46,532 nucleotides of DNA. Origin: Catajapyx aquilonaris (Eukaryota). A model generated the notes under the pieces. The model saw only the letters and a program-made list of their open reading frames with translations. It did not search any database and was not told the origin of the DNA. Of the stretch, positions 459 through 39,490 are shown in pieces. The position numbers and the translations under genes are program-made. The stretch is from positions 1 to 46,532 of the forward strand of contig JYFJ02006199.1 of the NCBI GenBank assembly GCA_000934665.2. The letters are read 5' to 3'. Numbering within the stretch: the stretch's first letter is position 1; each line of letters starts with the position of its first letter.

Positions 459-883
459 CTAAAAATGCTAACTATTTCCACATTTGACAGGTAATGTTTA
501 TTTATAATGGAAATAATGCAAAGAAAATGATGCCAGGCCCACAAAATTTTATACACTAGGCAAATTTCCACTGTACTCTGTAATTTTAGTTCAATAAGTG
601 TGCTGGTCCAAACCACAACACTTCCATTCCAAAATAATCCTCTCACTTCTACATTATTTTAGCAACCAAACTTATGATCTGGTAAAAGCAATGGAGGAGG
701 CAAAGTATGGCACACAATAAGGCTGCTTTCAAATTGGTTCACAAATATAAAGTAGATTGAATGAGACTTTTACTTTGTATCTCGGAATTGCTATCCTCAA
801 ATCACAATGTTGGCCACACGCACACAGACACTGTGAGAAAGTGCCAGCGAATGTGTTGGATTGATTCTCTATAATCCTCTTAC

Positions 884-927
884 CTGGTAAATGAATATCC
901 AGTTTTCAGCTTCAGGATCAGGTGATT
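884..927 (-). CDS. Gene B exon (KSPDPEAENWIFIYQ), paralogous to the start of the gene A PARP exon (KAEVADEAPWVFVF)
   Basis: 44 nt, tttacag / cag|gtaaga, phase 1 to 0. Confidence 0.75.
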
Positions 928-1179
928 CTGTAAAGACCAAATAATGGAAATGAAATGCCTTCAGAATTAGTACTGCAAAGTTATGCAATGTGCAGATATT
1001 CAAGGGATTCCCGAAAACAAAAATTACACTGTAAATAGTGTCCTTTGTATACCACAATAGAGTTTCCATGAGGGGTAGTGAAAAGTATGTCATGCTGGTT
1101 GGTACTACAGAAATTATTCCAACATGATCATCATGATATGGGAAAGGGAGAGGTGAACAGGAGATCACATTCAAAAGTG

Positions 1180-2231
1180 CAGTAGAATCCCAATTACTCC
1201 ATCACCCATGGGACCAGGGCATGGTTGGACACCAAAAAACGTCGGATAATCCGAAGAGCAAAGAAAACTTTAAGGAAACCTTAAGGAAACCTTAAGGAAA
1301 CACCACAAAAAATCTATAAAACATGAAATTTAAATGTACAATATTATGGATTTTAAGAAATAGGGAAGTACATGTATTTATCTTTTACATACACACTCGA
1401 CTGTGTTGTATTTACAATTGAATAGCCCAATAGAACAAGGGCCGATCCCCATGGTGGAAAAAAGGTGGGGGTATAAGAAAAAATTCACCATTTGTAAACT
1501 ATTTGAGGTACACATGCAGAAGTTAAGTGAATAGGCCTGCAATCACCATGGCCTCCTATCTTGCGATTTTCACTCTGATAGGACAGGCAGGAAGCTGAAA
1601 TTTGTACTTTGGAGTTCGGCCCTTGTCCTATTGGGAAGGAGGCAGGGACTTGGTTAGGAAAAAAGGTAGGGGTGGAAGACAAAAAATCGTTGTTTTAAAA
1701 CTATTTGAGGTTAATGTATGAAAGTAAATCCTTTCTGTCCAAAATCGCCATGACATATTATGATGTGATTTTCACTCCGATACGACGAGGGGGTGAAGCA
1801 GGACACGGCACGAAACTTGTATTTTGGAGTTCGGCCCTTGTTCTATTGGGAAAGTAGATTGGATATTTTTCGAGTGCATGGAAAAATGAAATCAGGCAGG
1901 AATAGCAATCACGTACTGTACAATGCAATGTGCCTTGAATATTTTTATTAAGCTCTCAGTTGTCAGGGATATTGCTCTCTGATGAATCTCCTCTGCCACT
2001 GAAGACTCGATTTGGTGCATCACTGATTGAGGGAGAGTTTGGCATACTCAGAAAGAAATCTGTAAAGGCTTTTAACATTGGTCAGTTCCGAAGCCTTCAC
2101 CATTTGTGTAGTTGGTAATGCCCTGCCCTCCCGATTATCCGAGATTATGGCTGCACGGGTGTTGCCGGGAAATCGGGAAATGGTCCTAATACCATATAAT
2201 CAGATATTCAGAGGTTTTTAATGTACTACTG
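1180..2231. mobile_element. Degenerate pogo/Tigger-like element containing a nested TIR element (1426-1850)
   Basis: Starts cagtagaatccc, ends ..tactg|ta, with ggataatc/gattatcc subterminal motifs; internal TIR cccaatagaacaagggccga ... tcggcccttgttctattggg. Confidence 0.5.
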
Positions 2232-2252
2232 TACATACTGTATTCTGCTTTA

Positions 2253-3040
2253 TCATCATCATCATCATCACCATCATGACATTTCCCTATAAGGGGTAGT
2301 CAGCGATGACGGGAGCCACAAGCTAACCCAAAATATTAACTAAATTAAAACTTGCAAAAATAAACCTAGAAACAACCCGCCCTGCCCCCACCTCTGCCCA
2401 TCTCCGACGACTAACTCTCAATATTAAATTTAAATATTACACTATACAACGCGGTACTTTGCGAAATCCACACCCGAACTCCAAGTGCTGTGCAGAACAG
2501 AGAGAGAGGCAGACACCCTTGCAAGCATGACTACTGGTGTCAACCTATGCATTACTGTGCAAGAGATATTTGCCAACCTTGTAGTTCTGCACAGCACCCA
2601 GAGCCAGAGTATGAATTTCCAGAAGCCGACTCCTCCCACCAACCTGCAAACATTCTAGCCATTCGGAAGAATTCAATGGACACTGCCATTCCTCACAAAC
2701 CCATGAATATTCTACCCATTAATTAACCTACGCCATTTACACCTATCCAAACAAACAACCCTAGCCTCAGCCACGTCCATGGTCCTATTGACACATGAAC
2801 GTCTTGGCTTAACACTTGCAACACCCTTAAGACACTGACCCACCTGGTCCAACCATGTCTTCCTACCCTTGCCCCTCTTACCAACTACTCCACCCGAATA
2901 AACCTTCTTCACAATCTCCTCCTCCTTCATCCTCTCCACATGGCCAAACCACCTTATAGTAGGCCTACACACCTTATCTTTAACAGTCTCCTTAAGATTA
3001 GATCTCTGTGAAATCTCCTCATTCCTAATCCTATCCAACT
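2253..3040 (-). mobile_element. RTE-clade LINE 3' fragment
   Basis: DRIRNEEI..RWFGHVERM..KRGKGRKTWLDQV RT C-terminus; (TGA)n tail; the 3' UTR recurs at ~43920-44120. Confidence 0.85.
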
Positions 3041-3515
3041 ATCATGCAGGATATCAGGGCTCGTTTTGGTAAGGCGCCACTGAGAAGAAGTAACTTTTTC
3101 AAGTGGGAGAAAAAAGCATTCAGCATGGGAAATGTGAAAAGACACTTCCCTTGCTAAATGCTTTTTTCTCCCACTTGAACAAGTTACTTCTTCTCAGTGG
3201 CGCCTTACCAAAACGAGTCCTGATATCCTGCATGATGTGCGTTAGGTTCTTTCCCGTATGAGGTCTCTCGCAGACCCACACAGTAGCCACAAGTCTCTCC
3301 TCCACAGTGAACCCGCTCGTATCCGCCATCTTGCACTGTTAACATTGTTAATTTATTGTGGGCGTTGTTGGGGGTCGTCAGATGTCTCCCCTCATCAAAC
3401 AGTTCCGTCAGTGTCCAGAAGATGTTACACCAGCATCTCCGACACATTTTCCATGCACAGATTTGTTTTGCAGGCAAAAAAAGCCAGGTGTCCTGGGACT
3501 TTCCGCCCACTCTGT
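3041..3515 (-). mobile_element. Tc1-like element 5' fragment with HTH domain and internal foldback
   Basis: ORF 3120-3329 (FTVEERL..RTRFGKAPLRRSNLFKWEKKAF..GSV); ta|cagagtg terminus; 3041-3136 is an inverted copy of 3142-3236. Confidence 0.7.
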
Positions 3516-3620
3516 AGAGACTGGACACCATTGTACGATATATTTCGCGTACCCCCTAAATTGTGTTCGCGTACCCCAGTTTGAAAACCACAGAATTAGG
3601 GGAAACATTTTGCTCCCCTG

Positions 3621-4502
3621 GGGGAGGATTCACAAAAGAGCGCAAACAGATACACCTTCGTAAGTTCAGTTCATTTTTCGCAACTACTTACCACCGGGCG
3701 GATCTCTGCGCCTGGTCGGGGGGTACGTGTAAGTGGGAGAAGTGACATGGCTCCTATTTGGACCGGAGCTAGAAGTCAAAGATAGACCTCACCCAGCCTT
3801 TCCCCAGATAATCCGGGATCGCATGTGGACCCCCCCCCCGTTACATGCCGGCCATGGGTAGGCCTACTCACGGCGTAAAATCCGGCCGACGCGACGACAC
3901 TTGCTGCCGGCAGACGACGAGGGGTTAATCACTCGTCAAGTCCGTATACGCTAAACTTCCGAGTGATTTACCCCTCGGCACAGACAAAGCAACAGTTTCG
4001 GCCAGCTTTGCCTGACTGCCCACTGCCAATAGGTTATTTGTTTAGCTCGGGTAAGGAGTGGGAATAGTGGAATGTGTCCAAGTCCGGCTTGCCCCTAGAC
4101 AATCCGGCGGCAGCCTTGAGCGGGGGTCTAGCCCCAACCCTCAATAAACTAGTTGGTCTCCCTTTTTAAATTTCAGCCGAGTGCTACAATTTTCAGGTAT
4201 TCCACCAAAGATGATAACTCTTTCCAAGCTTTTTCCCACCTTCCCTTAGTATCTTTGCCTTCCGCAGGTTGGCGCTAGGGTGGGTTCTGGCTGGGTTCGG
4301 GTGGCCGTCTAACAACGCAGCCAATAGCGAGCCCCTTACATGACACGTGACTTTTACCCTTGTGCCCCCCTTACACCGAGTGCTGCGCCGCTTTGTGAAT
4401 CACTTTACACCTCTCCCTACAACCGGTTGTAAGGGGAGCGTAAAGATATGGGTGTAAATCACTTACGCGCTCGAAAGTTGCGCTCTTTTGTGAATCCTCC
4501 CC
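3621..4502. mobile_element. PIF/Harbinger-type non-autonomous element
   Basis: TIR ggggaggattcacaaaagagcgcaa at both ends; 3-bp TSD ctg. Confidence 0.8.
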
Positions 4503-4953
4503 CTGGGATGAGTGCACACTTATATCCTAATGTCACGAGCTTGTGAAACTGCACACAGACAACTTTTCCAACAACCTACTACAAGTGCCTGGCACTACTA
4601 CACCATCATGTTTCATAGAGTGAGATGATCGTGTTGCCATTAATTGATATCCTATCCTTGTAAATACCACTTATTGTTGCAATATGACTTCAGGCTTATG
4701 ACATGCACGGGGTATCAGTAATGCATTCACAGCACTATTAATTAATATGGCCCTTTCCAGCAAATGAAAGTTTTAGGCTGTGACAGGCCTGTTAGGCAGA
4801 CCCAGATGACTGAAAATGATTAGTCTATGGCTGCTTTTTTTCACTTAACTGGTAAAGAATATAAAATATATATCTAACATTATCACGTCACTCAGACCAC
4901 CCTAAAAATATTTCCTGCAACAAAACATCTCCGTTGATAAGATTTTCACTCAC

Positions 4954-5065
4954 TTATTGACTGCAGCATTGTCTTCTGCTTAGTCTGGTGAAGATATCGG
5001 CAGATCTGCTTCTGGCAGCCACCAGGTTTGCTTTCATCAGGGCATGGTGTACGTATTAGGTTGTT
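4954..5065 (-). CDS. Gene B exon: finger 3 (NNLIRTPCPDESKPGGCQKQICRYLHQTKQKTMLQSI)
   Basis: 112 nt, tttgcag / gtgagt, phase 0 to 1; paralogous to gene A exon 3 (ES.PGGCQK..C..LH). Confidence 0.9.
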
Positions 5066-5838: not shown

Positions 5839-5958
5839 CTTAAGATCAATATGAAGGAAATTGCAATTGTGGTCATGGCAATTGCGGTTCTTCCACTTGG
5901 AGCAGATTACATTGGTCTCCCTCGCTGGTTCATGGTGCCTAAATGGACACTGAAGCTC
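5839..5958 (-). CDS. Gene B exon: fingers 1/2 (ELQCPFRHHEPARETNVICSKWKNRNCHDHNCNFLHIDLK)
   Basis: 120 nt, ccctag / gtaatt, phase 0/0; same length as gene A exon 2, 15/40 identical residues including all Cys/His ligands. Confidence 0.9.
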
Positions 5959-6289: not shown

Positions 6290-6605
6290 CCGGTGTGGAG
6301 GCCGAGATGGTAACGTCTAGGCTTGCTGAGTGAAAAGTCCCAGGTTCGATCCCCGCCTGGTAGTTCCCATTCACCTGCATCGGGAGGTGTCTAGGGGACT
6401 GCACATGGCCCAAACTTCAGACATTGCACCTGCACCCGTATCCCCTCCCCGAAAATCCCTATCCTTACCCAATCTCCTTGATTCCCTGCACCGGAGTGAA
6501 GTTAACTTATAAAATTGAGGGAAAATGGTCGTGTACCACCCCCCTATAGAACCCGTAAAGGGTCATCACGGGGTACAATAAATAAATAAATAAATAAATA
6601 ATTAA

Positions 6606-6660
<55 letters not shown>
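6290..6660 (+). mobile_element. tRNA-derived SINE with (AAAT)n/(AAT)n tail
   Basis: A-box-like ggccgagatgg, B box ggttcgatcc; 3' body similar to the SINE at 26330-26756. Confidence 0.7.
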
Positions 6661-7601
6661 TGCGTTGACAGTAAAATATGTAAATTATTTTGAAGACAAA
6701 TTCATTGCATAAGAAATGATATAACATGATGCCAGATTGAACTTGATTTGTAGAAGATATTCATATTGGCTGAAAAAAAACATGCTGGGATATTCCTGTT
6801 GGCAACACTTGACCATCTGGGATATGCACACACTGTGGCAGGGCAAAATGCAAATGAGATGTCAGGTTACAATATCAAGCATTGTGTACTAAGCTGGTAT
6901 ACAGAGGTCGCCGGGGAAAAGAGCCCCGGGGCTGAAGGGGTTAATCCTGCAGCTAGCATGTCTCTCAAGATGATAGAATCAGACCCACTCATAAATAATT
7001 ATGCAGAAAAATGAGGCAAATTCATTGCCATTTTGTAGGTCCCTGTTTATAAACTTTTCAAAGATGCATGTGGGTAGCGGTAGGTAGGTAGGTCTGTTAT
7101 GTTTCAAAAGTGCAGTGGCATACTTGGAAAAACAGAAAAGATGCTATTCTCAATGTGCATATTGAATTCCAGAACCCAATGGCATCATTTCTAATCACAC
7201 TGCAAGTCAATTTGAAGATAAGCAGAGAAAAAAAACACATTTGACTGGATAATTTCCTCAATAATATTTAGTGAAGGTTATTCCTAATATCAGATACAAA
7301 ACTACAACCAGTTTTTCAGTTCAAGTCATTAAAATCCAGGCATGAAAATTGATCCCTGGATTTATTTTGCAGTGCACCATGATAATTCTTATTGGAGGTT
7401 GTTCCTAATAATGTCAGGGGTCGAAATATTCTGATCCAAAGGTGAAATTTGCACTCCAGTCGGTCATGCTTTTTAACATGTCTGAACCCAGTAATTAAAA
7501 ATTAAGCACTCCAAGTAAGTAACTAGCACTTCATATGAAAGCATGGAGTGCAAACTTAGCACTTTGACAAAAAATCTAAGATTCGACTGCTGAAATGTTA
7601 T

Positions 7602-7602
<1 letters not shown>

Positions 7603-7687
<85 letters not shown>

Positions 7688-7976
7688 TTGATACCCCATT
7701 ATCAGCCTACGGGCTTTCCTAGGGGGGGATTTCTCCCAATTTTTTGCCTGGAACTCTTCCATTTTACTATTTTTCTCGTCACCGGAATGAAGCAGGGAAA
7801 GGGAAGGAAGGAGGCGGCTGTGGCCTATATTACGGTAACGACCCCGGAATTATCCTGCAAGGACCATGGGAAACCACAGAAAACCATGGTCAGGGTCGCC
7901 GGCCTCCGGGATTCGAACCCAGGACCTCCCGATTAGCAGTCGGACACCATACCACTACACCACTGCTGCTTCGGTG
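7603..7976 (-). mobile_element. tRNA-derived SINE with (TTA)n tail
   Basis: Minus strand gtggtgtagtgg..ggttcgaatcc head, ggttttctgtggttttccc core, long AAT microsatellite 7603-7687. Confidence 0.8.
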
Positions 7977-8189: not shown

Positions 8190-8780
8190 CAGGGTGTTTC
8201 AGAGCCACGGGTCAAGCGCGCGTGAGGGGGTGGAGAATAATCGTAGGTGGCGACAACCCCGGTCGGTTTTATAAAAGAATTAGAAATACTACAGTAATCA
8301 ATTTATTTATTACAGCCATAAGGCATGACGTCACGTCCTACTTTTTGTTCTAATTGACAGGCGTGGAGTGGCAAATGCAAGGTAAATGCATTGGGTTGAA
8401 CCTGGTAGACCTTGCGGGTTGCACTGAAAAAGGAGCTCTCGTGCTACACTGGCAGGGTACTGAACACACCACTGTACAGTAGTACACTACGTTGTACAGT
8501 ACCCTGCCGGTGTAGCATGAGAGCGCGTTTTTCAGTGCAACCCGCAAGGCTAAAAACCCGTCAACCAGGTTCAACCCAATGCATTTGCCTTGCATTTGCC
8601 ACTCTGCTCCAGTCAATTCGAACAGAAAGTAAGATGCGACGTCACGCCGTACGGCCGTAATAAATAAATTGATTACTGCCGTATTTCTAATTGTTTTATA
8701 AAACCGACCGGGGTTGTCACCACCTAGGATTTTTCCCCACCCCCTCGCGCGCACTTGACCTGTGACTCTGAAACACCCTG
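8190..8780. mobile_element. Palindromic Tc1/mariner-type MITE (copy 1)
   Basis: ta|cagggtgtttcagag ... ctctgaaacaccctg|ta; nearly the whole length is self-complementary; second copy at 38839-39391. Confidence 0.9.
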
Positions 8781-9053
8781 TATATTTAATAAAATTTAAA
8801 TATGCATGCATGATTCCCCATTGTAAATTTATTTTTTGATTGTATGGACTAGCATAGTTGCGTCACATTATAAAGCACATGCACCCGCTTTATCTGCCAT
8901 CTAGCAATCCTCTAATCATCCCGACATACCAATTGATCCGTTTCACTGACACAAATGTTACGTTAATAATAAAACATGCAGTGAAAATGTGCCGCGTACT
9001 GCAGTTACGACAAATAAGTGGTCTCCAGTTAGGAAAAGTTACTCCGTAATATA

Positions 9054-10250: not shown

Positions 10251-10989
10251 ATTTGGGCATTCTCCTGTAGTAATAAAATCCTTGCAATCTCCGATTTTCA
10301 TCAATTTCTCCTCAGCCTCTTTGGTCAGTTTCAGCTCATCTACTTGTTTCTGAAGATACTGGATCATTTCTGCAGTCTTGTCATTGGTGCCTTTCTCAGC
10401 CTTGTTTTTTGGATGCCCCATCCCTCGGCCTCTGCCTCTGCTTCTGCCTCGTCCCTTCCCTCGCTTCCCTTGGTTGCTTGATGTAGATATGTTACTGCAA
10501 GTATCACTATCTTCATCTTCATTGTAGTTGTTATCCTGCGACTGATGCCTGTGCTGACCCCTTCCGTAACCTCCTGCAACATGCTGATTATATGGCGGGT
10601 AAGGTTGGTGGAATTCAGCCTCCCGTCCCCACTGTGGTGTTGTATAATGTGGTGAAGGGTTGTAAGCATGTTGTGGGTAGGAATAGGATGGTGGCTGAGG
10701 ATAATGGCTATCATGCCCATAGTGGTGGCTGGGAAATGCAGGTGCGTTAAGTGTATAACTGTTGTATGATGGTGGAGCATGATGGTGGGATCTTTGCATT
10801 GGGTAGTATGGAGGTTGTTGGGGTTGGTAAGCGGATTGAGTATAGTTCTCCCAATAGGTAGAGTTACTACGTTGAGGTTGTTGCTGACGACGTGGTGGAC
10901 CATAATGACCTCGTGTAACATGCCCTCGATGATCTCGTGTGGGTGGTTCCTTCTCTTGCTCACTTGGTTGTTTCTGTGACCTCTTGGAC
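10251..10989 (-). CDS. Gene B large exon: Y/P/Q/H-rich low-complexity region, RG repeat, coiled coil, start of CCCH finger 1 (DCKDFITTGECPN)
   Basis: 739-nt open exon, cccacag acceptor, gtgagt donor placed at the same intra-finger position as in gene A. Confidence 0.88.
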
Positions 10990-11475
10990 CTGTGGGTTAC
11001 AAAAGTTTTAAAGAATTTGTAAACGAGAGGGGAAAATAATGGAGAAGTATGTGATTATTCTCCTAGTGTGGTGCCTGTTTAAGCACCTCAATTTTCGAGC
11101 TTGTAGTGAAATAATCATTTATCAGCTGTGACTCAAACTGCCATACCCTTGTAGATCAGCCTGAAACGTGAAATTTGACAGCATTTTTGTCTCTTTCAAC
11201 ACAAAAGAACATGGTTTTGCTGGCTCCATCTCTCAGAAAAGATGCGTAAGCAAGAAAGGGACCTATCCCCTACATCCTCCCCCTCCTGCCCCCCGAAAAA
11301 GCAATAAGCTTTTAATCGGTGAGAAAAAACCCCTCCTTCCCATTCTATGTGCATCCTATTCCTCCCCACTCTTTCCTAATGCATGGGATTATGGTGAGGA
11401 AGGTCCCGGGTTTTATGCCAAGCCTGAGTGTACGTTTGCATTTCGTGCAGTTAGACTATCTCCAGCTTCATCTCA

Positions 11476-27842: not shown

Positions 27843-28538
27843 CTCCTTCGGTACCAGATCTAGGCGATGAGATTCGCTTCTGTTCAACTTGCACGTACTC
27901 TGAAGATACACAAGATATTTTACAAAAAATAACCGCTATACTAACACATTCATGCTGTACACTATGAATATGTTTGGAACCATTTTCCACTTCTAGAATT
28001 CGCAAAATTAATTTCCAAAAAAATCGCCGTAAAAACTCGAAATTAAATTACAGCCAACCAACTGTTAGGCTGATTTCATTATGAAATACGTTAAAATAAA
28101 CGGAATAACAACCTTGAGAATCGTGTTTTAACGAATCAGCTGAAATCGTCACACTTCATGAGAATTAAATTCATACTTACTGCGGCTTGCCTCCCACTTC
28201 GGAAACTCCAAAATTCATTTAATTCTCACAAGTACGACAGTTTCAGCAGATTCATCACAGCACAATTCTCAAGGTTGTTATTCTGTATATTTTAACATAT
28301 TTCATAATTAAATCAGCCTGACAGTTGGCACGAAGTGATTTAATTTCGAGTTTTTACAGCAATTTTTTTGGAAATTAATTTTGCAACTTCCAGAAGTGGC
28401 ATATTCATAGTGTACACTGTACCGCATGAACGTGTAAGTATAGCTGTTATTATTTGTAAAATATCTTGTCCATATCTTCAGAGTACGGGCAAGTTGAACA
28501 GAAGCAAATCTCATCGCCTAGATCTGGTAGCGAAGGGG
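27843..28538. mobile_element. Old palindromic piggyBac-type MITE
   Basis: ccttcg.taccagatctaggcgatgagatt.gcttctgttcaacttgc inverted at both ends; gggg|ttaa at the right end. Confidence 0.75.
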
Positions 28539-28970
28539 TTAAAGATGCATGTGACTGATGATGTGACATGAACATGGCTTCATTATGAAGGGTGAAAAAA
28601 TGGATTTTATCGGTGAATCATACATGCAGTCAAATAATCATCCATGGCCAACACTGACTGTATACAATCATTGCAAGCAAATAAAAATTGGCAATAAAAA
28701 GCAACTCTCACGTTAAAATTATAGCAGTCCTTGTAAAAATTTAAAACTCCTGTAACAAACTGGGCATTCATTTTGGCAGAAAGGCTCTTACAAACAATAA
28801 TATCCAAATCTCATAAATACATTTAACACATTTTATGAGTTAAACATAATATGTAAAATTATCTGCATGTTTCAACATCCAATAGTCTCCCATAGTAACC
28901 AACTTTGTTCAAAAAAGCACCTCTCTGAATTACACAATAAGCAACATGAGACAGCACCTGCATGTGGCAC

Positions 28971-30565
28971 TTATGCTGGACGTATTTTAATCATGTAGTC
29001 AGGGTAAAAGGTATTATCATAGTACTTGACAAAGATTTTTGGGAGTATTTCCCTGTCTACAGTGGTGTCATACTGATGTCCACTAACAGGATCGTATGGA
29101 GGCCTGTGGATTGAGGCTGATCCCTGCACAGTCTTACCGACTAACACCTTGCATAAGAACATAATTTTAGGATCATCATCTTGTGTGCAATATGAGAGGG
29201 AGTACTTGGCACTTGAAGAGAAGTAAACTCCTTTCCCATAGGCATGGCCAACATGTGTACCAGTTAGCCTCCAATCAAAATTTTCTTCGCAAATTTTCTT
29301 ACACACTGAGGAAGAAGTTCCATGGAACAGCTTTTGTTCATTGACCTTACTAACATCATTCTTATTCATCATCAACATAACATGTTTCTTTGCCTGATAG
29401 CTTGACCACAGCATGGGATTCTGTATACGGAAAATGGATAGAGCCTTAATTTGAGAAGGATCAATTGTTTCATGAAGATGATTCGCTACACGCTGATACT
29501 CAGTTGAAAGTTTATCTACCTTGAACTTTTGATAAATGTCATCAGTCTCATTTCCCATTTTTTCCCAACACTCAGGTATCTCTGAAATGCTGAGAGTTGG
29601 ACTCCTTGTCATGGGACTGGCTTCAACCCTCTTGACTGGCCTAGTATAACCCGTTGAAAGGTTCTTCTGCCTCATATTAGAAAAACTGATTGTGTATTGC
29701 TTACCATTATCAGCACCAAACAACATCATACCTTTAGGATTTTGCTGATATTCCAACTCAATTGAACTTGAAACAACATTAGCAGAGGACTTACGCACAG
29801 GACATTCATGGTCATAAGACGTCCAGTGACCTGTGTCATCCTTCCAATACCAAATGGCCACATCCACAGGTTTGGGACGCCTACGAACTGGAACAGATCC
29901 TGATCTAGTTGTTTGCTCTCTATCAGACAATTTCACAATGTGACCTGGGGCGAGTTGCACAGTCTGCATGGGGTTTTCCTGAAAGGCCTTCTCAAGTGCT
30001 ATTGTTTTTGAATCAACATACTCCTTCCATGTACCGTCAAAGCAATACCATTTCCACACAACAGCATTTCGGTAATTACTCAAAGGGAGTGTGGTCAAGC
30101 GACGCATTTTTAGGTCACTAGTGTCACCATTTTCTTCTTTTAACCTGAGTAACTCAAAGTCAACGTTCCACCTGTAATCATCTAACATGACCTTCAGAGG
30201 ATGATCACCAGGCAGTCCATGTTGTTTGGGCAAATCCACAGTGTTTGTTGAGACATTGCAGTAATCTTTCTCCAGTTTGAATGAGCAATAATCTGGCAAA
30301 TTCAGCCACACTGTTCCATCTGAACTTACTTGCCACAAATAATGCTTCTTGGAATGGTGGTCGGGACACATTACATCTACACAACAATCTTCTAAAAAAG
30401 CCTGGCAGATATTAGGTTGAGCAGCAGGTAAAGGAGATTCCAACAGCTCAAAGTTAGCTTCAAGTAGAGATGATAATGTAAGCTCTATAGTACTTAATCT
30501 TGCGATGCCTTTCTCTTTCTCTATGAACACAAAAACCCAAGGTGCTTCATCTGCTACTTCTGCTT
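28971..30565 (-). CDS. Gene A terminal coding exon: CCCH finger + 3 WWE-like domains + PARP (mono-ADP-ribosyltransferase) catalytic domain; PARP12/ZC3HAV1/TIPARP-like
   Basis: 519-aa ORF 28971-30530 extends in frame to the acceptor ttttttacag at 30566. Motifs: CQAFLEDCCVDVMCPDHH; YLWQ..W; WKWYCFDGTWKEY..LEKAF..VRRRP; WYWKDDTGHWTSY..IELEY..YTISFSNMRQKNLSTGYTRPVKR; RIQNPMLW; LFHGTS; YGKGVYF; MFLCKVLVG; YDTTVD; IFVKYYDNTFYPDYMI. Confidence 0.95.
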
Positions 30566-30642
30566 CTGTAAAAAATCAATATTGTATTATTTCTGTATTT
30601 ACAAAATAGTCTTGCATTAAGTCTCACAAATCCACCACTTAC

Positions 30643-30742
30643 TTTTGTCCCCACTATTCTTTGTGTGCAAGAATGGGCAATGCTCTTTTTGGCATCCACC
30701 TGGCTGACTTTCATAATAGCAGGCCACAACTGAACGATTGAC
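30643..30742 (-). CDS. Gene A exon 3: third ZC3H11A-type CCCH finger (VNRSVVACYYESQPGGCQKEHCPFLHTKNSGDK)
   Basis: 100-nt exon, ctttag acceptor, gtaagt donor, phase 0 to 1. A 77-nt intron joins it in frame to the PARP exon. Resembles ZC3H11A finger 3 (CYWENQPxGCQK..C.F.H). Confidence 0.9.
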
Positions 30743-31105
30743 CTAAAGCATAATAAAAGAATTAACAAAGAACCTAACTGAAAATATTACAATAATTCTG
30801 AATTAACCTTTAAGTAGCATATAGATTTGACCATACTTGGAACCACGGCCTATTACTTAGGTCACGCAACTCCTTCCCCCTGTGCGCGAGTTTTGCTGCG
30901 CATGGGCTTGGCGCTGCCTTCCTCCACAGAGCACAACTTTGACGTCCCGTTCGGGTGGCTGGCTCTGCGACTTTCCCTACCGACCCAGCTGCATTGGAGA
31001 GAATGGTTCCGGTTGGTTCAGAAAAGCATCCGCCCGAATGTGACGTCAAAGTTGTGCTCTGTGGAGCGATGCCAGGGCCAAATAGAACATTCTACCATGG
31101 GGGGN

Positions 31106-31106
<1 letters not shown>

Positions 31107-31142
<36 letters not shown>
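31107..31142. repeat. (GA)n microsatellite next to an N base
   Basis: Seen directly. Confidence 0.95.
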
Positions 31143-31143
<1 letters not shown>

Positions 31144-31698
31144 AACTAAGCTCATGCCCTTCCCTGTATAGCTAGATAGGGAGTTGCAGGGGGGTGCTTG
31201 GAACCAAGATGTGTACAGTACATTAGTTCTATCAGTCAAATATTTTTGCATCTGATCACTTATGCACTTATCACTTGCATTACTTATGAGAAAGTGGTCT
31301 TGGATAATATTTGGATTATAGTTGACATTGATTTATAGTCTGGACAGTCCCAGGTATTCACATTATTAACATGACCAAAATTAATATGCAATTATGTGTG
31401 TAATGGAACTGAAGTTTCCAAAATCTGAAAAATTTTGTCTTATCAATTAGAAGAAAACATCAGTCTGAGACAAAAGGCACACTTGTTTCCAACACACTGT
31501 ACATGACAGAGAGAACATGATATTTTAAATGGTACAACACGGGCTAGGAGTAGTACCAGTATTTTGGGCTTTCTCAAAAGTTGGTTCATTGGACTTGTGG
31601 TTTTCGTAACAACTGATTCAAATATTCTCAACATACTCTCTAACATGGATTGCACCTCATGACGTATGGCATCATATCCACTTAATATAGCAAATCTA

Positions 31699-31871
31699 CA
31701 GGGTGACTCTAAAGTCAGGATACATAGGTCATTGGATTGTTTGTTTCCAGTTGTGCCAACTACCAGTTTGTTCACAGTCAGTAAAGGTACAGTTGGCAGT
31801 TGGAGTTGGCACAACTGGCAACAAACGCTGCAATCCAATTACCTATGTATCCTGACTTTAGAGTCACCCTG
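31699..31871. mobile_element. Tc1/mariner-type MITE
   Basis: ta|cagggtgactctaaagtcaggatacataggt ... acctatgtatcctgactttagagtcaccctg|ta. Confidence 0.9.
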
Positions 31872-33199
31872 TATATTCACTCTCTCCACAGATGATTTGG
31901 AAAAGCAGGTTTGTACAGCAAGTGATTCACCTAGAATTAAGGTCTAAACTCATATCAACTTGAAACTCCGACTTGTACGTGTGAGTCACACTTTTGCTTG
32001 CGGAAATGACAGATGCATGCGATGGAATGCTGTTGCTGCGAATGTGCAGGTCTCTGGTTGATTCTCACTACACGCAACTGTTGGCAGTGCCGTGTGTTTG
32101 TGGCTTTGATTTACCACTGGTAGATCGTATGCGCAAGCACATTCCACAAGCACGGCCCCTGGTAACCCATCACCGTCCCTGTGGGTGGTCACATGGGACC
32201 CTCCTGCTTTCCATGCACACTGTCCCCTTCTCTTAGCATCCCTGCCAATTGTTGCTGTTCGATTCTTGCACTGTTTGATTATTGCACTTCATGCCATAAT
32301 GCACATGCATCCTCGTGGAATAATTTGAAGGCTCATGTGCAGAGGAGGATGGAATCCAATGTGCACAAGTTAGAGTTTCAAGTCAATATAAGTCTGTACA
32401 CAAAATACATTGTGGCTTTCAAGATACCTACTGAAACAGTCCACATAGAGGAATACCGTATTACTTCACTTAAAGCGGCATGCCACAATAACAGAGGTCG
32501 ATTTCCATGATTTTGATCCTTGTCAAATTTTTTGGAATGCTTCTGGTAGAGTACCATCCTAAAATAATGTTATGGTGGAAAATGTGCCAGTAAAGGGCTG
32601 TGAGAATATGCAAGTTCATCTGTTGCACATGGTATACAGTGTGACCAATCCCATATTCAGCCTGCTATGAGAGGGGAACCCCCCTAAACATTACAAAGGA
32701 ACAAGGCAAATTCCTTCAGTCCTTCGTTGTGCTCAATAGTTCGCTGGTCACAGATCTTATTGGTGATCAGAGGATCACTTCAAGTAGTTGTATTAATTTG
32801 TCTGAGAAGTCATGTTACTTAGATAATAAAATCCAAACTCAACATATGAAATATCCTGGTAGGTATGCTTCCCTTCTTGCAGTCTTGCCCTTTTAATTGA
32901 AAATATTGCCGTGAAATCTTAACTCAAAATACGATCTTATAGGATGTGTCAGGCATAAGTGTCCTGGGCTATCGGCATCATAGAACATATATTCATTTGA
33001 ATAATAATAATTTTCGCAGACTGCGTGATAATGCTGTGTTCAAGAAAAACTCCCCTCATACCAGCATACCTCACTTAGACGGGCATGCCGGGATAGCCAC
33101 CAGATTGTGCATTTCTAAAAACTGGTACTACACGACTACACCAGCATGCCGCTTTAAGTGAGGTAATATGGTCACATCTTGTACAAAAAGTGATCTCAC

Positions 33200-33319
33200 C
33201 TTCAGATTCATGTGACGAAATTCACACTGAGGTTTGGTGCATGATTTCTTCAGCCAAAATTTGCAGACAACTTCATTTTTCCGTGCAGCTGGTTCGTGTC
33301 GATACAAGCACTGTTCTCC
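33200..33319 (-). CDS. Gene A exon 2: end of finger 1 and finger 2 (GEQCLYRHEPAARKNEVVCKFWLKKSCTKPQCEFRHMNLK), ZC3H11A-type
   Basis: 120-nt exon, ttgcag acceptor, gtgaga donor, phase 0/0; close to the ZC3H11A N-terminal finger sequence. Confidence 0.92.
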
Positions 33320-34721
33320 CTGCAATAATACAGGAAAATTATCACATGTAATAATGGCAGTAACTGGTAACATACTTGTCCAACATTAAAATACATAAAT
33401 GATGTGGATGTGGTCATTACAATGTATCATCCCTGTAAGATTAATTTTTCCGTGACATCACATTTTAAAACCAGTAATTCACAATATGACCATAATCAAT
33501 ATTCATGGATTTTTTTTCTCAACCAGAACAGTCTCTTTAGGCTCAATATTTGTACACATGTGGGTCATTCCATGTCAATTCACCAAGCCCCCTGACCCTT
33601 GGGTTGTCAGATCATGATGAAAAACGGCACATCGCTTTAATTACATCCTCCAAGAATACCATTTGCGTGGTTTTGCAATTTACCCCCCCTCCCCGGAGAT
33701 ACTCCCACCGAAAAAAAATTGCCTTTTCGGAAGGTAAGGTTTCAGAAATCGGTTATATATCTTGAACCAATTGAGCTATAGAGGTCATCCACCACTCTAT
33801 TTCAATGTATTTGAGAGCCCAATCTCCCTTACCATTAAAAATTCGGATTTTGACTTTTTTGAAAATTTTGTCACATTTTCAAAATTTCAAATTTCTTTTT
33901 GAAGAATTCCTCCCAATTTAAAAAATCCGATTTTTAAATCATGATAGCTCAGACCCTTTCCTTGACCTAGAAAAATATCCAAGTAGGAGTTTTTTGACTT
34001 AATCCTGTAATGCCCACTGGGTCATATCTGGCACACCATTTCGTGCAATTTTTGCAATTTTTATATTTCCTGTAAGTGCCAAATTGCACTAAATGGTGTG
34101 CCAGATAAGACCCATTTGCATTACATGCATTACAGGGTTAAGGAAAATAATTGTACTTGAAGAAGTGCATCTGCATGTGCACCCAATAATTACACTAGGC
34201 GCCATATCATTCTCATGTCGTTCATGATGGAAGCAGAATTGGAAACAAGTTGGTAGCAAACCTTTTTAGACTAATTCGACCACGCTGATTTGGAAAATCG
34301 AGGTTAGAACTCTAGATTTCGGATCCTTCTGACACAAAAACAAGATGGCGTCCAAGGTTATGGCATTTATAAGAATTACAAGGCAGTCGCGAATTTTTGC
34401 CCTAAATGTGGCATGTGAGGTGTGGTTTTAGGAGTTCTGGGTCGATAAGGTCAACCCTGAGTGACCCAAGGTCATATGACGTCACTGGAAGTAGAAAATT
34501 TGAAGTGACAGGTAGTTTTACGGACTTGAAAGATCTCGTTCATTGCACACAGATAAAAGTTACGGAATACGTTGTGACAGCTACATTATGTTACATTATG
34601 ACAAACACATAAGTCTTTGATGCTAACCATCAGACTGGGTTCAGTGCTTACCGGTAAGTGAAGCCATTTACGTGTACCTGTATATCTATGGTAGTACCTG
34701 TGAGCATTTTGTATTTGGGTT

Positions 34722-34726
<5 letters not shown>

Positions 34727-34784
<58 letters not shown>

Positions 34785-35541
34785 TAATAATTCTTGGGTA
34801 GTGCCTGACCCTATATAGGGTATGCGGCCCGGACCTTTATTGTAACTTGTAGTACATAGACCATATTTTTGAAACGCCCGGGCCCACGGGCAGGATGACA
34901 GGAGGGGATGTGCAAGGTGCAGTGCAATGTCTTAATCTTGGCCATTTTTAGTGAACTCTCCCGGTGGTTTAGTCTATTGGAAATACCACCCGAGACGAAG
35001 CCAGAGGTGACCCTGAACTCTGCACGAGATGAAGGGGGTGTCCCCGGGCTGGGATACTCGGGAGTCGGGACCTTAAAGGGACACTCCACTCATAAAACAA
35101 GTTTGGCTCTAAAAATCGGGCAAAAAATCCTGAATCCGAAGGTGCAATCCGTTTTTCGCTACACGGAACGGTAATCCCAGGGCGAGGGGTCAAAGTGGGG
35201 AAATTCAAATAGTGCGCTAGAAGCTGGCCATCCGCCAGCGACGCCCTCGGGACCTTGGGAACTGGAGGGCTGCTCCCGCCTGCCCACGCGCTTAGGCCCA
35301 TCCCAGAGCGGTGCAGCCTTCCAGTTTCCCTGTTCCCCGCGTGGAGGCGCCGCTCATTAGCAGACGACACACTTTGACACCTCGCCCTGGGATTACCGTT
35401 ACACGTAGCGAAAAACGAATTGCACCTTCGGATTCAGGATTTTTTGCACGATTTTTAGAGCCAAACTTGTTTTTTGAGTGGAGTGTCCCTTTAACATCCG
35501 TGGGCGCATACGTTACCGCAGCACCACTCCGCCTCCCTTAC
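34727..35541 (-). mobile_element. tRNA-derived SINE with 12-bp TSD, interrupted by a TTAA MITE
   Basis: TSD ttgggttacatt (34715-34726 and 35542-35553); (TTA)n tail; homologous to 9657-9955. Confidence 0.85.
35077..35490. mobile_element. Kolobok-type MITE (AG..CT termini, TTAA TSD)
   Basis: ttaa|agggacactccactca ... tgagtggagtgtccct|ttaa; ~120-bp inverted arms. Confidence 0.8.
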
Positions 35542-36296
35542 TTGGGTTACATTGCTCATAGTTATTACGGATGCATTTCATAGCACTTCATGTTTGTCAT
35601 AATGTAATATGTTATTGCCAGATAACATATTCCGTGACTTTTATCTGTGTGCAATGAACGAGATCTTTCAAGTCCGTAAAACTACCTGTCACTTCAAATT
35701 TTCTACTTCCAGCAATGTCATATGACATGGGCCAGAAGGGCTTACAAACCCGGATTTCTTTCACTATGGCTGGATACCCTTCCAGTCGGAGTCCTTGACA
35801 AAAAATTTATTCCACCCTGGGATTTCAAGCCCTTTTGGTTTTACAGGCCTTTGAAATTGGAAAAATGTATCATTTTTATGGCTATATTGAAGCTCATTAA
35901 AGTCCCAGTTACCAATATTTTATCTTACATGTATATACATATTCTAAAAGGCCAAGACCTCTAGTTTCATGCAGTGAAATTCAGAACATCCTATGTTTGA
36001 CAGAAACCAAACGGCAGCCTCTTTTCAAAACCCCTGTAAAAGCTTGTTTTTGCTTGTCGCAGTGAAGAAAATTGAGTGTGAATCTAAGATGGTGACACAT
36101 AAAAAAATTAACTAAAATAGTTTTGAGTACATCATTATCAAGGCCACCCATGGTGAAAATATTTTAAAAAACTAGATGGTCGAGCAACCATCTAATATAA
36201 AATTGGCTGATTTCACATGGAATGCTACAATGAGCTGCTTCACCTACAGGCATGACTATCTCACTTTAGTTGTAACGGATGTGTTATTGTGCATAC

Positions 36297-36461
36297 TTTG
36301 TCACATTTGGAGTAGTAGTAGTAATAGCAGTCGTCAGCATTTTTTTGCACTCCTGTGGCATGTCCATGTTGAGCACCTCTTCTTGTACCTCTACTTGGAG
36401 TGGCATGACCCTGGCCCCTGCCGAATGGAGAGCTGTTCCTGGGTGTTGATGATCTACTCAT
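36297..36461 (-). CDS. Gene A first coding exon: RG/S-rich N-terminus + start of finger 1 (MSRSSTP...DDCYYYYYSKCDK)
   Basis: Acceptor tgttgcag before 36469, ATG at 36461, gtatgc donor after 36297, 55 codons; DCYYYYYSKCDK matches the ZC3H11A finger 1 start. Confidence 0.88.
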
Positions 36462-37539
36462 CTTAACATCTGCAACACAAGAGTAGGATAAAATCCAAAA
36501 AGTGCCTAGTTTCAGCTATGTACTATTTTAAAATTGTACAAAGAATATGACAATAAATAAAACTAACATCTTTACGTATTAAAACATTTTACTGTATACT
36601 GTACAGAGTGGTGACGATAAATGAGGACAAATGAACAAGTAGATAGAAACATCGCTAAAAAGAGGAACAGATGATTATAATGAAAATAAATTATGTCGCT
36701 GAAAAGTGCGATCGTTGAATTTAATTTCGCCTAAAACCATTTTCAGCTGAAGTTCTTCTCTCCAAATTGCAATTTTGCCGAAAACCACTTTCGGTGAATG
36801 TTCCTGTTGCCGGAAAATGCGTTCACCGAATTTAATTTTCGCCCAATGGTAGTCACCAAATCGTCATTTGCAGAGTTTTCTTTCGCCGAGTTTATCGGGA
36901 ACCCCACGATAGGTGTGGCTCTCTTGTCCTATTGGCTAGTCACGGTGCGGTTGACAATGTGGACCATGGCAGTTTTGTACACCCAAGAGAGACAGCATGC
37001 TTATTGCTATACCAATTACAATAATCTACATATTGTCATCCTTGTACTGTTAGACTGCAAAATGTGTCCTAATTTACCAGCGCCACCCTGTATGAATGAA
37101 TTATTAAATAACTGTCCTACCTCAAAGATGTAGGCAGACAGGAAATGTAGCATTTTCATGCCATATGCCCAAATGGTAATCATGTAAGAGGGCTGTAAAT
37201 AAAAGAGTAGCAACACATCTCTAGAAAATCAGTGACATGTAGGAAGTTTACACAGCTTATGCCACAGATAGGTTGGTTCTTGATCTAACCTCTGAGCATA
37301 ATGCGATCATCCCACTTCTACATATGCATGCGCAAAAATCCCCCCTCAAGAGCCGAAAAAGGCTGATAACGGGGTAAGATATTATTATTATTATTACATA
37401 TGCATGTGCAGTAAAGATTATAGCGTGAGCTGTCACAATCAACTGTCAACAGGCGATGTTTTCTTAATTTGAGCAAAGGTGCTGGCTAAAAATTGCAAAT
37501 TTGTCATGAAGGGCTTTTAGAGGCTTGTGGGGAACATGC

Positions 37540-38150: not shown

Positions 38151-39490
38151 CAACCATTACAACGTGAATCTGCCATACATTGGCTACGACGTGTGGTCTT
38201 TAAGGACCCCAAAGAGTTTCATTTCTATTCTTTTTTTTTGACTTAATAGCACTAAAGCCATTCTTCCCCGCTAAATTCAACCTGTCTTCTCATCTGTATG
38301 TGTAAAAAAAATCGATCTCCTGTGACCATTAGTTGAGTCATAAGGGACTCGAGACTGTTAGACTTCGTAGCCTTCCAGCTCGATGCCGTAAGCAATGGCT
38401 TATAACGTAAACCCCCCTGACATGATCAGATCTATGCCCTTTGGACACTATCGGTGGATATGTCATCTAATCACTTGAGGTATCACTTGAGAGTTTTCGA
38501 CACATGTACCACATCTGCAACTCATGATTCCAGTTTTTGGAGGGCTTAGAGCAACAAGTGTATAAGTGCCCTGTGAAAAAAGTTGCAAGATAGAACCTTT
38601 TCGATTACCACTGATCGTTTATATTTTTATTACTGTCATATGCATACTTTATCAAATACAATTTGCTGTGATGTGCTGTAATGTGTTCTCTAAAAAATTA
38701 TGTACATTGGCTACGACGTCGGATATATCTGGACCCCAGGGACACCTAGCAGCATAAAAGTACCGCTAACTCAGCAAATTCTTTTTCTACTGATGTCAAA
38801 GTTTTCCATTGGATAGAAGAAAATATGTCTGAGGAATACAGGGTGTTTCAGAGTCATGGGTCAAGCGCGCGTGAGGGGGTGGGGAAAACTCGTAGGTGGC
38901 GACAACCCCGGTCGGTTTTATAAAACAATTAGAAATAAGGCAGCAATCAATTTATTCATTACGGCCGTACGGTGTGACGGCGCGGACTGGCTAGTGCAGC
39001 ATGGGTTGAACGGCATTTTAGCCTTGCGGGTTGCACTGAAAAAGGCGCTCTCATGCTATACCAGTAGGGTACCGTACAAAGTAGTGTACTACTGTACAGT
39101 AGTGTGTACCGTACCCTGCCGGTATAGCAGGAGATCGCCTTTTTCAGTGCAACCCTCAAGGCTAAAAAGCCGTTCAACCAGGTTCAACCCATGCTGCACT
39201 AGCCAGTCCGCGCCAGTCAATTCGAACAGAAAGGATGTCGAAGGATGCGATGTCATGCCGTACGGCCGTAATGAATAAATTGATTACTGCCGTATTTCTT
39301 ATTGTTTTATAAAACCGACCCTGACAGTCGCCACCTACAATTTTTCCCCACCTCCTCGCGCGCGCTTGACCCATGACTCTGAAACACCTTGTATAGGCCT
39401 ACCATTTTCCATTTCACACAAAATTTATTAATCTCGATGGTATTAACTACATTGTGGGGTCCAAAAAGACCCCACGTTCGTGGTTAAGGG
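38150..39490. mobile_element. piggyBac-type MITE (22050 family) carrying Tc1-type palindromic MITE copy 2 (38839-39391)
   Basis: Homology to 22050-22789; the empty site gaggaata-caggcct at ~22685 matches the filled site here. Confidence 0.85.

Follow-up and report, generated by a model that had tools for sequence, protein, structure and literature searches.

Does the locus examined here encode one protein in which zinc fingers of the ZC3H11A family are fused to a CCCH-WWE-PARP module, and, if so, what kind of protein would that be? We addressed this in a window of 46,532 nt from Catajapyx aquilonaris (GenBank assembly GCA_000934665.2, contig JYFJ02006199.1), which is the whole stretch of DNA that was analyzed and to which all coordinates refer.

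Gene structure and transcript evidence

The gene is real and spliced. Its four minus-strand exons (Table 1) join in phases 0, 0 and 1 into a coding sequence of 1980 nt, corresponding to 659 amino acids plus the stop codon, with no stop within. The gene structure proposed in an earlier note on this DNA (four GT-AG exons in these phases, a frame of ~659 residues and a last intron of 77 nt) was reproduced from the sequence, and the finger sequences quoted there agreed with our translations. The N-terminus, rich in R, G and S, is the product of exon 1, as is the first half of finger 1 (C45, C53), a finger that intron 1 interrupts two residues past its second cysteine. The second half of this finger (C59, H63) and finger 2 (C74-H91) are encoded by exon 2, and finger 3 (C103-H121) is the product of exon 3.

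Table 1 Features of the gene in window coordinates. All positions are on the forward-strand numbering; "cut" gives the shift between alignment and splice site.
Feature	Position	Strand	Details
Start-codon exon, whole	36297..36470	-	9 nt 5' leader after AG acceptor (36472-36471), then CDS
Exon 1 CDS	36461..36297	-	ATG at 36461, 55 codons; donor GTATGC, phase 0
Intron 1	33320..36296	-	2977 nt, GT..AG; contig joint 33318>36296 (cut +1); contains a 130-nt repeat as an inverted pair and an AAT-type microsatellite
Exon 2	33319..33200	-	120 nt, 40 codons; acceptor ..TTGCAG, donor GTGAGA; phase 0 at both ends
Intron 2	30743..33199	-	2457 nt, GT..AG; contig joint 30740>33198 (cut +2); run of N near 31106-31151
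Exon 3	30742..30643	-	100 nt; acceptor ..CTTTAG, donor GTAAGT; phase 1
Intron 3	30566..30642	-	77 nt, GT..AG; contig joint 30565>30643, skips 77
Exon 4	30565..28971	-	530 codons and stop; acceptor ..TTTACAG; linker, CCCH finger, three WWE-like domains, PARP
CCCH finger directly before first WWE	30354..30407	-	Protein C182, C190, C195, H199; motif scan C-x7-C-x4-C-x3-H
First WWE-like domain (WWE_4 type)	30090..30341	-	Protein about 204-287; PF23466, 18.5-18.7 bits (cut-off 24.5 bits, score below it)
Middle, extra WWE domain	29880..30062	-	Protein about 297-357; PF02825, 28.1 bits, E 2.7e-6 on slice
Last WWE domain	29628..29855	-	Protein 366-441; PF02825, 67.2 bits; W-W-E signature W367, W376, E398
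PARP catalytic domain	28980..29543	-	Protein 470-657; PF00644, E 2.4e-26; triad H543, Y576, I639
3' UTR, minimum extent	28526..28970	-	X1 contig on 28526-29914, without differences

Transcript evidence came from the public run X1, an assembly of 85,611 contigs totalling 31.8 million letters. A single 906-nt contig maps to 30229-30565, 30643-30740, 33198-33318 and 36296-36470 and spans three introns, with joints that read CT..AC on the plus strand, that is, GT..AG on the gene strand, and that equal the predicted sites once the alignment shifts of +2 and +1 given in Table 1 are applied. The proposed connection of the finger exons to the PARP exon across 30643/30565 is present in this one assembled contig, the only one to document the joints (word depth 4.5). 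X1 covers the exons, and of the introns just short stretches that carry repeats, as expected of a transcriptome. Since no record gives the library type of X1, the reading of the joined form as mRNA rests on this exon-only cover. The same contig extends for 175 further nt 5' of 36470, starting exactly at the AG acceptor, indicating at least one more 5' exon, which lies outside 28500-37000. Hence, translation may actually begin further upstream, and the N-terminus may be longer than modelled.

The joined contig could also stem from read-through or chimeric splicing of two neighboring genes that normally give separate proteins, one small and ZC3H11A-like, the other coding for WWE-PARP. Head and body do come from different families and the joints lie in a single contig of low depth, while retention of the short intron between them would stop the frame after 8 more codons and yield a fingers-only product. 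However, no separate start is available to exon 4 on its upstream side, where the frame closes 4 codons before the acceptor, and its first in-frame methionine would cut the CCCH finger. Moreover, the phase-1 end of exon 3 equals the phase of exon 4, the joints are exact GT..AG, and two Armadillidium gene models show the identical head-body order. We therefore regard two normally separate proteins as highly improbable; a fingers-only isoform with intron 3 retained was not observed.

The finger head and the WWE-PARP body

The products of exons 1, 2 and 3 match consecutive stretches of the Pfam profile PF15663 (zf-CCCH_3), at profile positions 2-18, 19-58 and 60-87, respectively. Measured against the family cut-off of 31 bits, exon 2 (46.8 bits, E 3.9e-12) and exon 3 (39.8 bits) each score above it, and exon 1 adds 15.7 bits. 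Because three small exons match consecutive stretches of one profile, the head is not a chance match. The first cysteines of its fingers (C45, C74, C103) are 29 and 29 residues apart, equal to the spacing of C8, C37 and C66, the finger residues of human ZC3H11A named in PMC10371797. The profile matches and the cysteine spacing both uphold the earlier assignment of the head to the ZC3H11A family as a triple finger. In the four fingers (the three of the head and the CCCH finger before the WWE domains), the zinc ligands, 16 in total, are intact.

Exon 4 matched the WWE (E 1e-25) and PARP (E 2e-26) profiles. The CCCH finger directly before the first WWE domain is the counterpart of the fifth finger in PARP12 and ZAP; its ligands (C53, C61, C66 and H70 in exon-4 numbering) are conserved in at least 90% of 58 aligned homologues, and its model has a pLDDT of about 89-93. 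Three WWE-like domains follow, where the earlier note's CCCH-WWE-PARP layout had implied one. The first of them shows conserved W77, W86 and E98 in the 58-homologue alignment, has a confident beta-rich model and aligns with residues 515-646 of an A. vulgare relative (P0196). The middle domain is absent from most aligned relatives, and model confidence there is only about 60. In the last, W238, E269 and R312 are invariant across the 58 homologues, and this domain matches the ZAP central-domain chains 7kzh (E 8.5e-10) and 7sz2 (E 3e-8).

The H-Y-I triad of the PARP domain, which is of the mono-ADP-ribosyltransferase type, aligns with human PARP12 (2pqf; motifs lfHGT, GkGvYF and pkIFV; E 1.2e-34), and PARP12 was also the best Foldseek match (TM 0.94-0.95, 39-40% identity). 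Together with the PF00644 and WWE matches, these results bear out a C-terminal part of PARP12 type. Judged by its sequence, the body is a mono-ADP-ribosyltransferase of the active PARP12 type; its activity and poly(ADP-ribose) binding are predicted from relatives. The relatives behind the predicted RNA binding, poly(ADP-ribose) binding and catalysis are only 32-40% identical in the body. No match to the PARP12-type tandem fingers (PF25261, zf-CCCH_PARP12) was found at E <=1 in any exon translation or in residues 1-78 encoded by exon 4. Because PF25261 is absent here and present in relatives, we file the protein as a head-swapped variant of its clade and not as a canonical PARP12.

Relatives, proposed function and alternatives

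In the WWE-PARP tree, the window protein belongs to a group of 55 rows (SH-aLRT 88) that is distinct from a vertebrate group of 89 rows, and all 12 named rows of the former are crustaceans; the gene is of crustacean type. The heads found on close relatives of the body are different ones: ankyrin (P0050, P0053), CH (P0072) and extra WWE domains, as well as PARP12-type fingers (P0207, P0094, P0067, P0064, P0091, P0103). Domain shuffling, as suggested earlier, is a fair reading of this variety. The accompanying description "convergent on ZAP" is too loose for an enzyme of the active, PARP12-like type that descends from a crustacean PARP12-like clade and was not assembled anew. The WWE-PARP branch of the window protein is long (1.11-1.27 changes per site vs. 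a median of 0.2-0.46), which could mean relaxed constraint. The best identity among the 150 representatives listed is 42%, with no close relative found.

Among 204 relatives compared, a zf-CCCH_3 head combined with WWE and PARP domains occurs in one Armadillidium cluster only, with A. nasatum KAB7501409.1 (P0082) and A. vulgare KAL7642884.1 (P0196), which are automatically named "PARP12" or hypothetical. These proteins, and the joining of head and body in them, are gene predictions. The window and Armadillidium bodies are not sisters in the WWE-PARP tree (AU p 0.0095; 0.038 with a head-less paralogue included). With the caveat of the long branch, the same head on non-sister bodies suggests that the fusion occurred repeatedly or that the head cassette moves. 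As to the earlier suggestion that this architecture might be undescribed, no description was found in the literature searched, but the Armadillidium gene models already have it. By these sequence comparisons, a ZC3H11A-type head on a PARP12-type body is rare among the 204 relatives, not unique.

We consider it probable that the product is a mono-ADP-ribosyltransferase of the PARP12-like clade, with a ZC3H11A-type triple finger in place of the usual N-terminal PARP12-type array, and that this finger head would direct the enzyme to RNA or polyadenylated RNPs. The domain order is a disordered N-terminus, three zf-CCCH_3 fingers, a linker, one CCCH finger, three WWE-like domains and PARP. According to PMC5910864, ZC3H11A binds purine-rich RNA, deletion of its three fingers abolishes RNA binding, and several nuclear-replicating viruses require the protein. 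PMC10371797 reports that the human fingers also bind PABPN1, whereas the THO/TREX contacts are independent of them. By analogy with these human fingers, the head may be what brings the enzyme to its targets, either single-stranded RNA or polyadenylated RNPs. The WWE domains would then read ADP-ribose signals and the catalytic domain would mono-ADP-ribosylate itself or neighboring proteins, possibly as part of a response to stress or viruses, a role that has been proposed for PARP12. The antiviral or RNA-surveillance role suggested in the earlier note is hypothetical. Such a protein could have arisen when a three-exon head cassette (phases 0, 0, 1) was shuffled onto a single large phase-1 WWE-PARP exon. 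A second head cassette, with intron positions as in the first, lies ~18 kb downstream and is more divergent.

The same human data allow the head to be viewed mainly as a protein-recognition or bait module, and less as a reader of RNA, that could copy the PABPN1-binding, virus-exploited part of ZC3H11A. The fusion would then act as a guard or integrated decoy that brings an ADP-ribosylating effector to the complexes or viral factors whose usual partner is ZC3H11A. Consistent with this, the finger module alone was copied (PF15663 positions 88-110 and the remainder of ZC3H11A are absent), the body evolves fast and the same fusion is found on two non-sister bodies. Use of the ZC3H11A orthologue by crustacean viruses and binding of the PABPN1 orthologue by this head are assumptions, though, and the long branch equally fits relaxed constraint; we hold a guard or decoy role to be unlikely.

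Relaxed constraint leads to a further possibility, that the gene is an exon-shuffling by-product of an expanding family, transcribed and weakly constrained, without distinct function or heading for loss. The very long terminal branch, the failure to find a close relative and the more divergent neighboring cassette are in line with this, as is the loss of the PARP12-type fingers that the Armadillidium form retains. Yet the 659-codon frame is intact over four exons, nothing is lost from the 16 zinc ligands, W-W-E signature or H-Y-I triad, and the splice sites are all canonical and used, so that a gene of this kind appears distinctly unlikely to us.

Comparison with known systems

ZAP (ZC3HAV1, PARP13) resembles the window protein in having an RNA-binding CCCH head (predicted here), then CCCH-WWE-WWE and a PARP fold, and its WWE (E 8.5e-10) and PARP (E 1.2e-19) domains are detectably related to those of the window protein. 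Its four-finger CpG-binding head is absent, the sole match being one to zf-CCCH_10 on exon 2 that falls short of significance (E 0.89). The PARP domain of ZAP is known to lack the H-Y-I/E triad and to be catalytically inactive, whereas that of the window protein has the H-Y-I of active PARP12. The missing four-finger head and the presence of the triad set the window protein apart from ZAP. ZAP itself is described in PMC8102003 as a tetrapod-lineage offshoot of PARP12.

With ZC3H11A, the window protein shares three tandem CCCH fingers that fit PF15663 2-87 with the same first-cysteine spacing. The fingers begin at residue 45 and not at the N-terminus, and only the finger module is present: where ZC3H11A continues into a long C-terminal part with the finger-independent THO/TREX contacts cited above (PMC10371797), the window protein has WWE-PARP instead. 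It is not a ZC3H11A orthologue, since a linker, CCCH, WWE and PARP come after the fingers.

Human PARP12 (ARTD12) is the best solved match by both sequence and fold; a CCCH finger directly precedes the WWE domains in both proteins, PARP follows, and the H, Y and I positions align. The window protein differs in having zf-CCCH_3 fingers instead of the PF25261 tandem, in one extra WWE domain and in the placement of its body, which lies in the crustacean clade and outside the vertebrate PARP12 group.

Between head and WWE, the Armadillidium proteins (models of 854-919 aa) still have a PARP12-type finger tandem, weakly matched (PF25261, E 0.0013), that the window protein lacks, and their body identity to it is only 32%. 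Their head, in contrast, is 57% identical (51/89) with equal Cys/His spacing, and the P0082 model begins exactly at the start of window exon 2, which suggests a common intron position.

Exon structure and joining of the finger and PARP exons

The four coding exons of the main gene, joined by their coordinates in a script, gave a coding sequence of 1980 nt (659 codons plus the stop) with phases 0, 0 and 1, introns of 2977, 2457 and 77 nt, and a pyrimidine tract and AG at every acceptor. Every figure put forward in the earlier note for exon coordinates, phases, intron sizes and the frame of ~659 aa matched the re-read sequence. Exons 1–3 encode the ZC3H11A-type triple finger, called the head (head 1) here, and exon 4 encodes the CCCH-WWE-PARP part, called the body.

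Exons and other features of the window
Feature	Position	Strand	Details
Main gene, exon 1	36461..36297	minus	ATG in AAGATGA context; 55 codons; donor GTATGC
Main gene, exon 2	33319..33200	minus	120 nt; donor GTGAGA
Main gene, exon 3	30742..30643	minus	100 nt; donor GTAAGT
Main gene, exon 4	30565..28971	minus	stop codon included
Second head, first exon	11054..10251	minus	ends with DCKDFITTGECPN before GTGAGT at 10251; phase 0
Second head, middle exon	5958..5839	minus	120 nt; phase 0 at both ends
Second head, last exon	5065..4954	minus	112 nt; donor GTGAGT; phase 1
Intron-1 repeat, inverted pair	35068-35197 / 35370-35499		130-nt repeat; 93% complementary; 172 nt apart
Retroelement-like open frame	2712..3038	minus	reverse-transcriptase tail type
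Another repeated element, first copy	8350..8862	minus	translated sequence similar to that of the second copy
Another repeated element, second copy	38817..39278	plus	opposite strand to the first copy
Long AAT-type microsatellites	6600-6700, 7580-7700, 34717-34797
Run of N	near 31106-31151

Exon 4 was found in one public sequencing run only, X1 (85,611 Logan contigs, 31.8 million letters in total), whose record gives no library type. The X1 contigs were compared with the window stretch 28500–37000. A single contig of 906 nt spans 30229–30565, 30643–30740, 33198–33318 and 36296–36470; its three joints read CT..AC on the plus strand and fall exactly on the predicted junctions after the tool's stated +2 and +1 shifts. 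Against the possibility, raised in the earlier note, that no transcript joins the fingers to the PARP exon, all four exons are thus joined in one contig. X1 cover tracked the exons and the 3′ UTR down to 28526, and intronic cover was limited to short repeat-bearing stretches. This pattern looks like that of a transcript assembly and not of a genomic one (RNA is not stated in the record). That the finger and PARP exons belong to two genes linked by read-through is unlikely, because exon 4 lacks its own start codon and the phases agree.

The 906-nt contig extends 175 letters further 5′ of 36470, a position directly preceded by an AG at 36472–36471. Hence, at least one upstream (fifth) exon lies outside 28500–37000. 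The frame is open from this acceptor to the ATG of exon 1, and the N-terminus may therefore exceed the modelled one. Retention of the 77-nt last intron (30566–30642) would bring a stop after 8 codons, with a predicted fingers-only protein of ~136 residues.

The window is repeat-rich. X1 contigs stack up on the inverted repeat pair of intron 1, where word depth ranges from hundreds to thousands, which makes this an abundant element in X1. A tRNA scan of 28000–37500 found none, and the abundant intronic repeat is therefore not a recognisable tRNA gene.

Domain composition and catalytic type

PF15663, WWE and PARP matches bore out the domain reading of the earlier note, which had described ZC3H11A-type fingers followed by a CCCH-WWE-PARP module. 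The zf-CCCH_3 profile (PF15663, cut-off 31 bits) was matched consecutively by exons 1–3 at profile positions 2–18 (15.7 bits), 19–58 (46.8 bits) and 60–87 (39.8 bits). The head fingers are C45–H63, which is split by intron 1, C74–H91 and C103–H121. Their first cysteines are spaced 29 + 29 residues apart, as are C8, C37 and C66 of human ZC3H11A, the residues mutated in PMC10371797.

Exon 4 begins with a poorly modelled linker. It is followed by a CCCH finger of the form C-x7-C-x4-C-x3-H (protein C182–H199), with ligands at least 90% conserved in 58 aligned homologues, a first WWE of WWE_4 type (18.5 bits, under the cut-off, yet modelled with confidence and alignable with relatives), an additional WWE in the middle (28.1 bits, pLDDT ~60), a strong last WWE (67.2 bits) in which W, W, E and two R are invariant or nearly so, and the PARP domain. 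The PARP12-type tandem finger (PF25261) was not found anywhere in the protein, the first 78 residues of exon 4 included.

The best solved relative by sequence was human PARP12 (2pqf, E 1.2e-34), with H543, Y576 and I639 aligned opposite the corresponding human PARP12 residues. The AlphaFold model (mean pLDDT 81) superposed on PARP12 catalytic fragments with TM 0.94–0.95 at 39–40% identity, and the PARP and WWE domains of ZAP were more distant matches. Since H, Y and I align with those of human PARP12, and PARP12 is nearest both by sequence and by fold, the window protein is by sequence a predicted active-type mono-ADP-ribosyltransferase. The parallel with ZAP drawn in the earlier note was too strong. 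An orthologue of ZAP is ruled out by the head and the triad, and one of ZC3H11A because the fingers alone are in common.

Relatives of the body and origin of the head

A word-index search with exon 4 returned 41 proteins at 27–38% identity, most of them fish 'PARP12(-like)' proteins, together with proteins of Penaeus, Ptychodera and Antedon; PF15663 was not among the precomputed domains of these 41. An exhaustive representative search gave 5288 matches at E ≤0.001, with identities of ≤42% in the best 150. The body tree was based on the last WWE and PARP region and comprised 146 rows, namely those of the 202 stored proteins with a match covering the region. In this tree, the window protein fell into a 55-row group (SH-aLRT 88), apart from an 89-row vertebrate PARP12 group. 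Of these 55 rows, 12 are named, and every one of the 12 is crustacean, from the genera Armadillidium, Meganyctiphanes, Halocaridina, Penaeus, Trinorchestia, Hyalella and Darwinula. A 53-row re-analysis placed the window protein inside a 7-row group (SH-aLRT 89); those of its members that were scanned carry either PARP12-type fingers or nothing recognised as a head. The window protein sits on a long branch (1.11 in the 146-row tree), which would fit a weakly constrained by-product of exon shuffling; against such a by-product, all zinc ligands are intact, as are the triad and the W-W-E signature. The window gene is best described as a head-swapped representative of an expanded PARP12-like family in crustaceans.

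WWE and PARP domains were observed in named crustacean proteins from Armadillidium, krill, amphipods, an ostracod and shrimps, often with weak PARP12-type finger matches (for example the stored relatives P0207/P0094, P0064, P0067, P0091 and P0103). These proteins do not fit the statement in PMC8102003 that arthropods are without ZAP/PARP12 homologues. Among other stored relatives, the hemichordate protein P0046 (Ptychodera flava XP_070561328.1) has three tandem PARP catalytic domains, and the unnamed Logan protein P0072 has two calponin-homology domains before three WWE domains and a PARP.

When all 204 stored proteins except the window's own pieces were searched by phmmer with the spliced 129-residue head, only two were recovered: P0196 (A. 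vulgare KAL7642884.1, E 4.6e-36) and P0082 (Armadillidium nasatum KAB7501409.1, 'Poly [ADP-ribose] polymerase 12, partial', E 1.1e-28), which belong to one 90% cluster. Pfam scans of 26 relatives likewise found PF15663 in these two and in none of the other 24. P0196 has the order zf-CCCH_3 (84–166), weak PARP12-type finger tandem (394–435), WWE_4, WWE and PARP. Because the PARP12-type tandem is kept behind zf-CCCH_3, the isopod head reads as an N-terminal addition to an otherwise complete PARP12-like protein. The window gene, by contrast, carries the new head alone. The truncated model P0082 starts exactly at the residue that begins the window's exon 2, and this coincidence hints at an intron position common to both genes.

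With these Armadillidium entries, public protein sets already contain the combination of zf-CCCH_3, WWE and PARP, filed under a generic name. The novelty claimed in the earlier note was overstated to that extent. Within open-access text, no paper mentioning the architecture was found: the works in which ZC3H11A and PARP12 occur together have neither term in title or abstract, and none of the listed works naming PF15663 or zf-CCCH_3 was on PARPs. A word-index search with exon 2 alone against longer proteins gave no candidate; one with the head region of P0082 gave 10, of which P0082 alone passed, a result that says little on the spread of the head. The named cluster closest to the head consists of short arthropod zf-CCCH_3 proteins (score 0.89); up to three Pfam families are shown for it, and PARP is not one of them. 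For whole P0196, PF15663 was not shown for any of the ten nearest clusters listed (scores ≤0.82), a weak result with only three families shown per cluster.

Between the window and Armadillidium, the heads are 57% identical (51/89) and the bodies 32%. In the body tree, the Armadillidium pair stood far from the window protein, nested with starred support beside the head-less tandem paralogue P0094/P0207, which in A. vulgare lies two gene numbers away from the fused gene. AU tests were run on 53 rows (47 of the 55 crustacean-group rows and 6 vertebrate rows), leaving out 7 long or near-duplicate rows (P0189, P0176, P0061, P0202–P0206 partly). Forcing the window protein, P0082 and P0196 to be monophyletic cost 41.5 log-likelihood units (AU p 0.0095), and adding P0094 to the forced clade cost 31.8 units (AU p 0.038), for groups chosen after the first tree, a long window row and gene models from which head exons are possibly missing. 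The phylogeny favours either independent fusions or a head cassette moving between paralogues, and the earlier proposal of domain shuffling was right.

Downstream of the PARP gene and on its strand, a tblastn search together with a scan for CCCH motifs detected more zf-CCCH_3-like fingers. They form a second, more divergent head cassette ~18–24 kb downstream of the main gene, with intron positions and phases (0, 0, 1) equal to those of the main gene. Its first exon closes an open frame of 268 low-complexity codons, Q/P/Y/H- and RG-rich, that extends to 11054. The cassette matched PF15663 with 34.3 and 19.1 bits, with sequence identities of only 35% to head 1 and 27% to the isopod head. Since window 1–4953 gave no match to WWE or PARP, this gene either continues beyond the window or ends in a part of a different kind. 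The two cassettes show the head here as an apparently portable three-exon unit, the phase-1 end of which fits the phase-1 start of the WWE-PARP exon.

Possible function and comparison with vertebrate CCCH-PARP proteins

PARP12 acts through its WWE domains in moving to stress granules. Poly(ADP-ribose) made by PARP1 causes PARP12 translocation to these granules, as stated in PMC5656619. For human ZC3H11A, PMC5910864 reports that deletion of the three fingers abolishes mRNA binding and that the CLIP sites are short and purine-rich. According to PMC10371797, PABPN1 is a further binding partner of these fingers, which also target the protein to nuclear speckles but are not needed for THO contacts. 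By analogy, the head would recruit the window protein to purine-rich or polyadenylated RNPs, the WWE domains would sense ADP-ribose, and the protein would mono-ADP-ribosylate others nearby.

Alternatively, the head might serve as a decoy or guard. We regard as a long shot an 'integrated decoy' in animal innate immunity. Nuclear-replicating viruses depend on the host factor ZC3H11A; in this reading, a copy of its finger module would have been joined to an ADP-ribosylating effector on at least two independent occasions in crustaceans, once in the PARP12-like paralogue of the window and once in a non-sister Armadillidium paralogue, and the second head cassette would be part of a local array of such genes. 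Viral RNAs or proteins seeking ZC3H11A/PABPN1 would then recruit a mono-ADP-ribosyltransferase instead. If, as in the recruitment model, the head keeps ZC3H11A specificity, mono-ADP-ribosylation would be directed to polyadenylated or purine-rich RNPs, and the gene would offer a testable entry point into crustacean antiviral or stress biology, with relevance to shrimp aquaculture. The fusion would be of greater interest if recurrent or virus-directed.

In vertebrate antiviral defence, the CCCH-PARP proteins PARP12, ZAP and TIPARP link the recognition of RNA with ADP-ribose signalling, and their finger head sets which RNAs they see. Here, a crustacean lineage traded the PARP12-type head for the finger module of a factor in mRNA export and polyadenylation, and bodies of this type also occur with ankyrin, CH or PARP12-type heads. 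With several heads on one body type, the crustacean WWE-PARP family is thus a natural experiment in effector retargeting.
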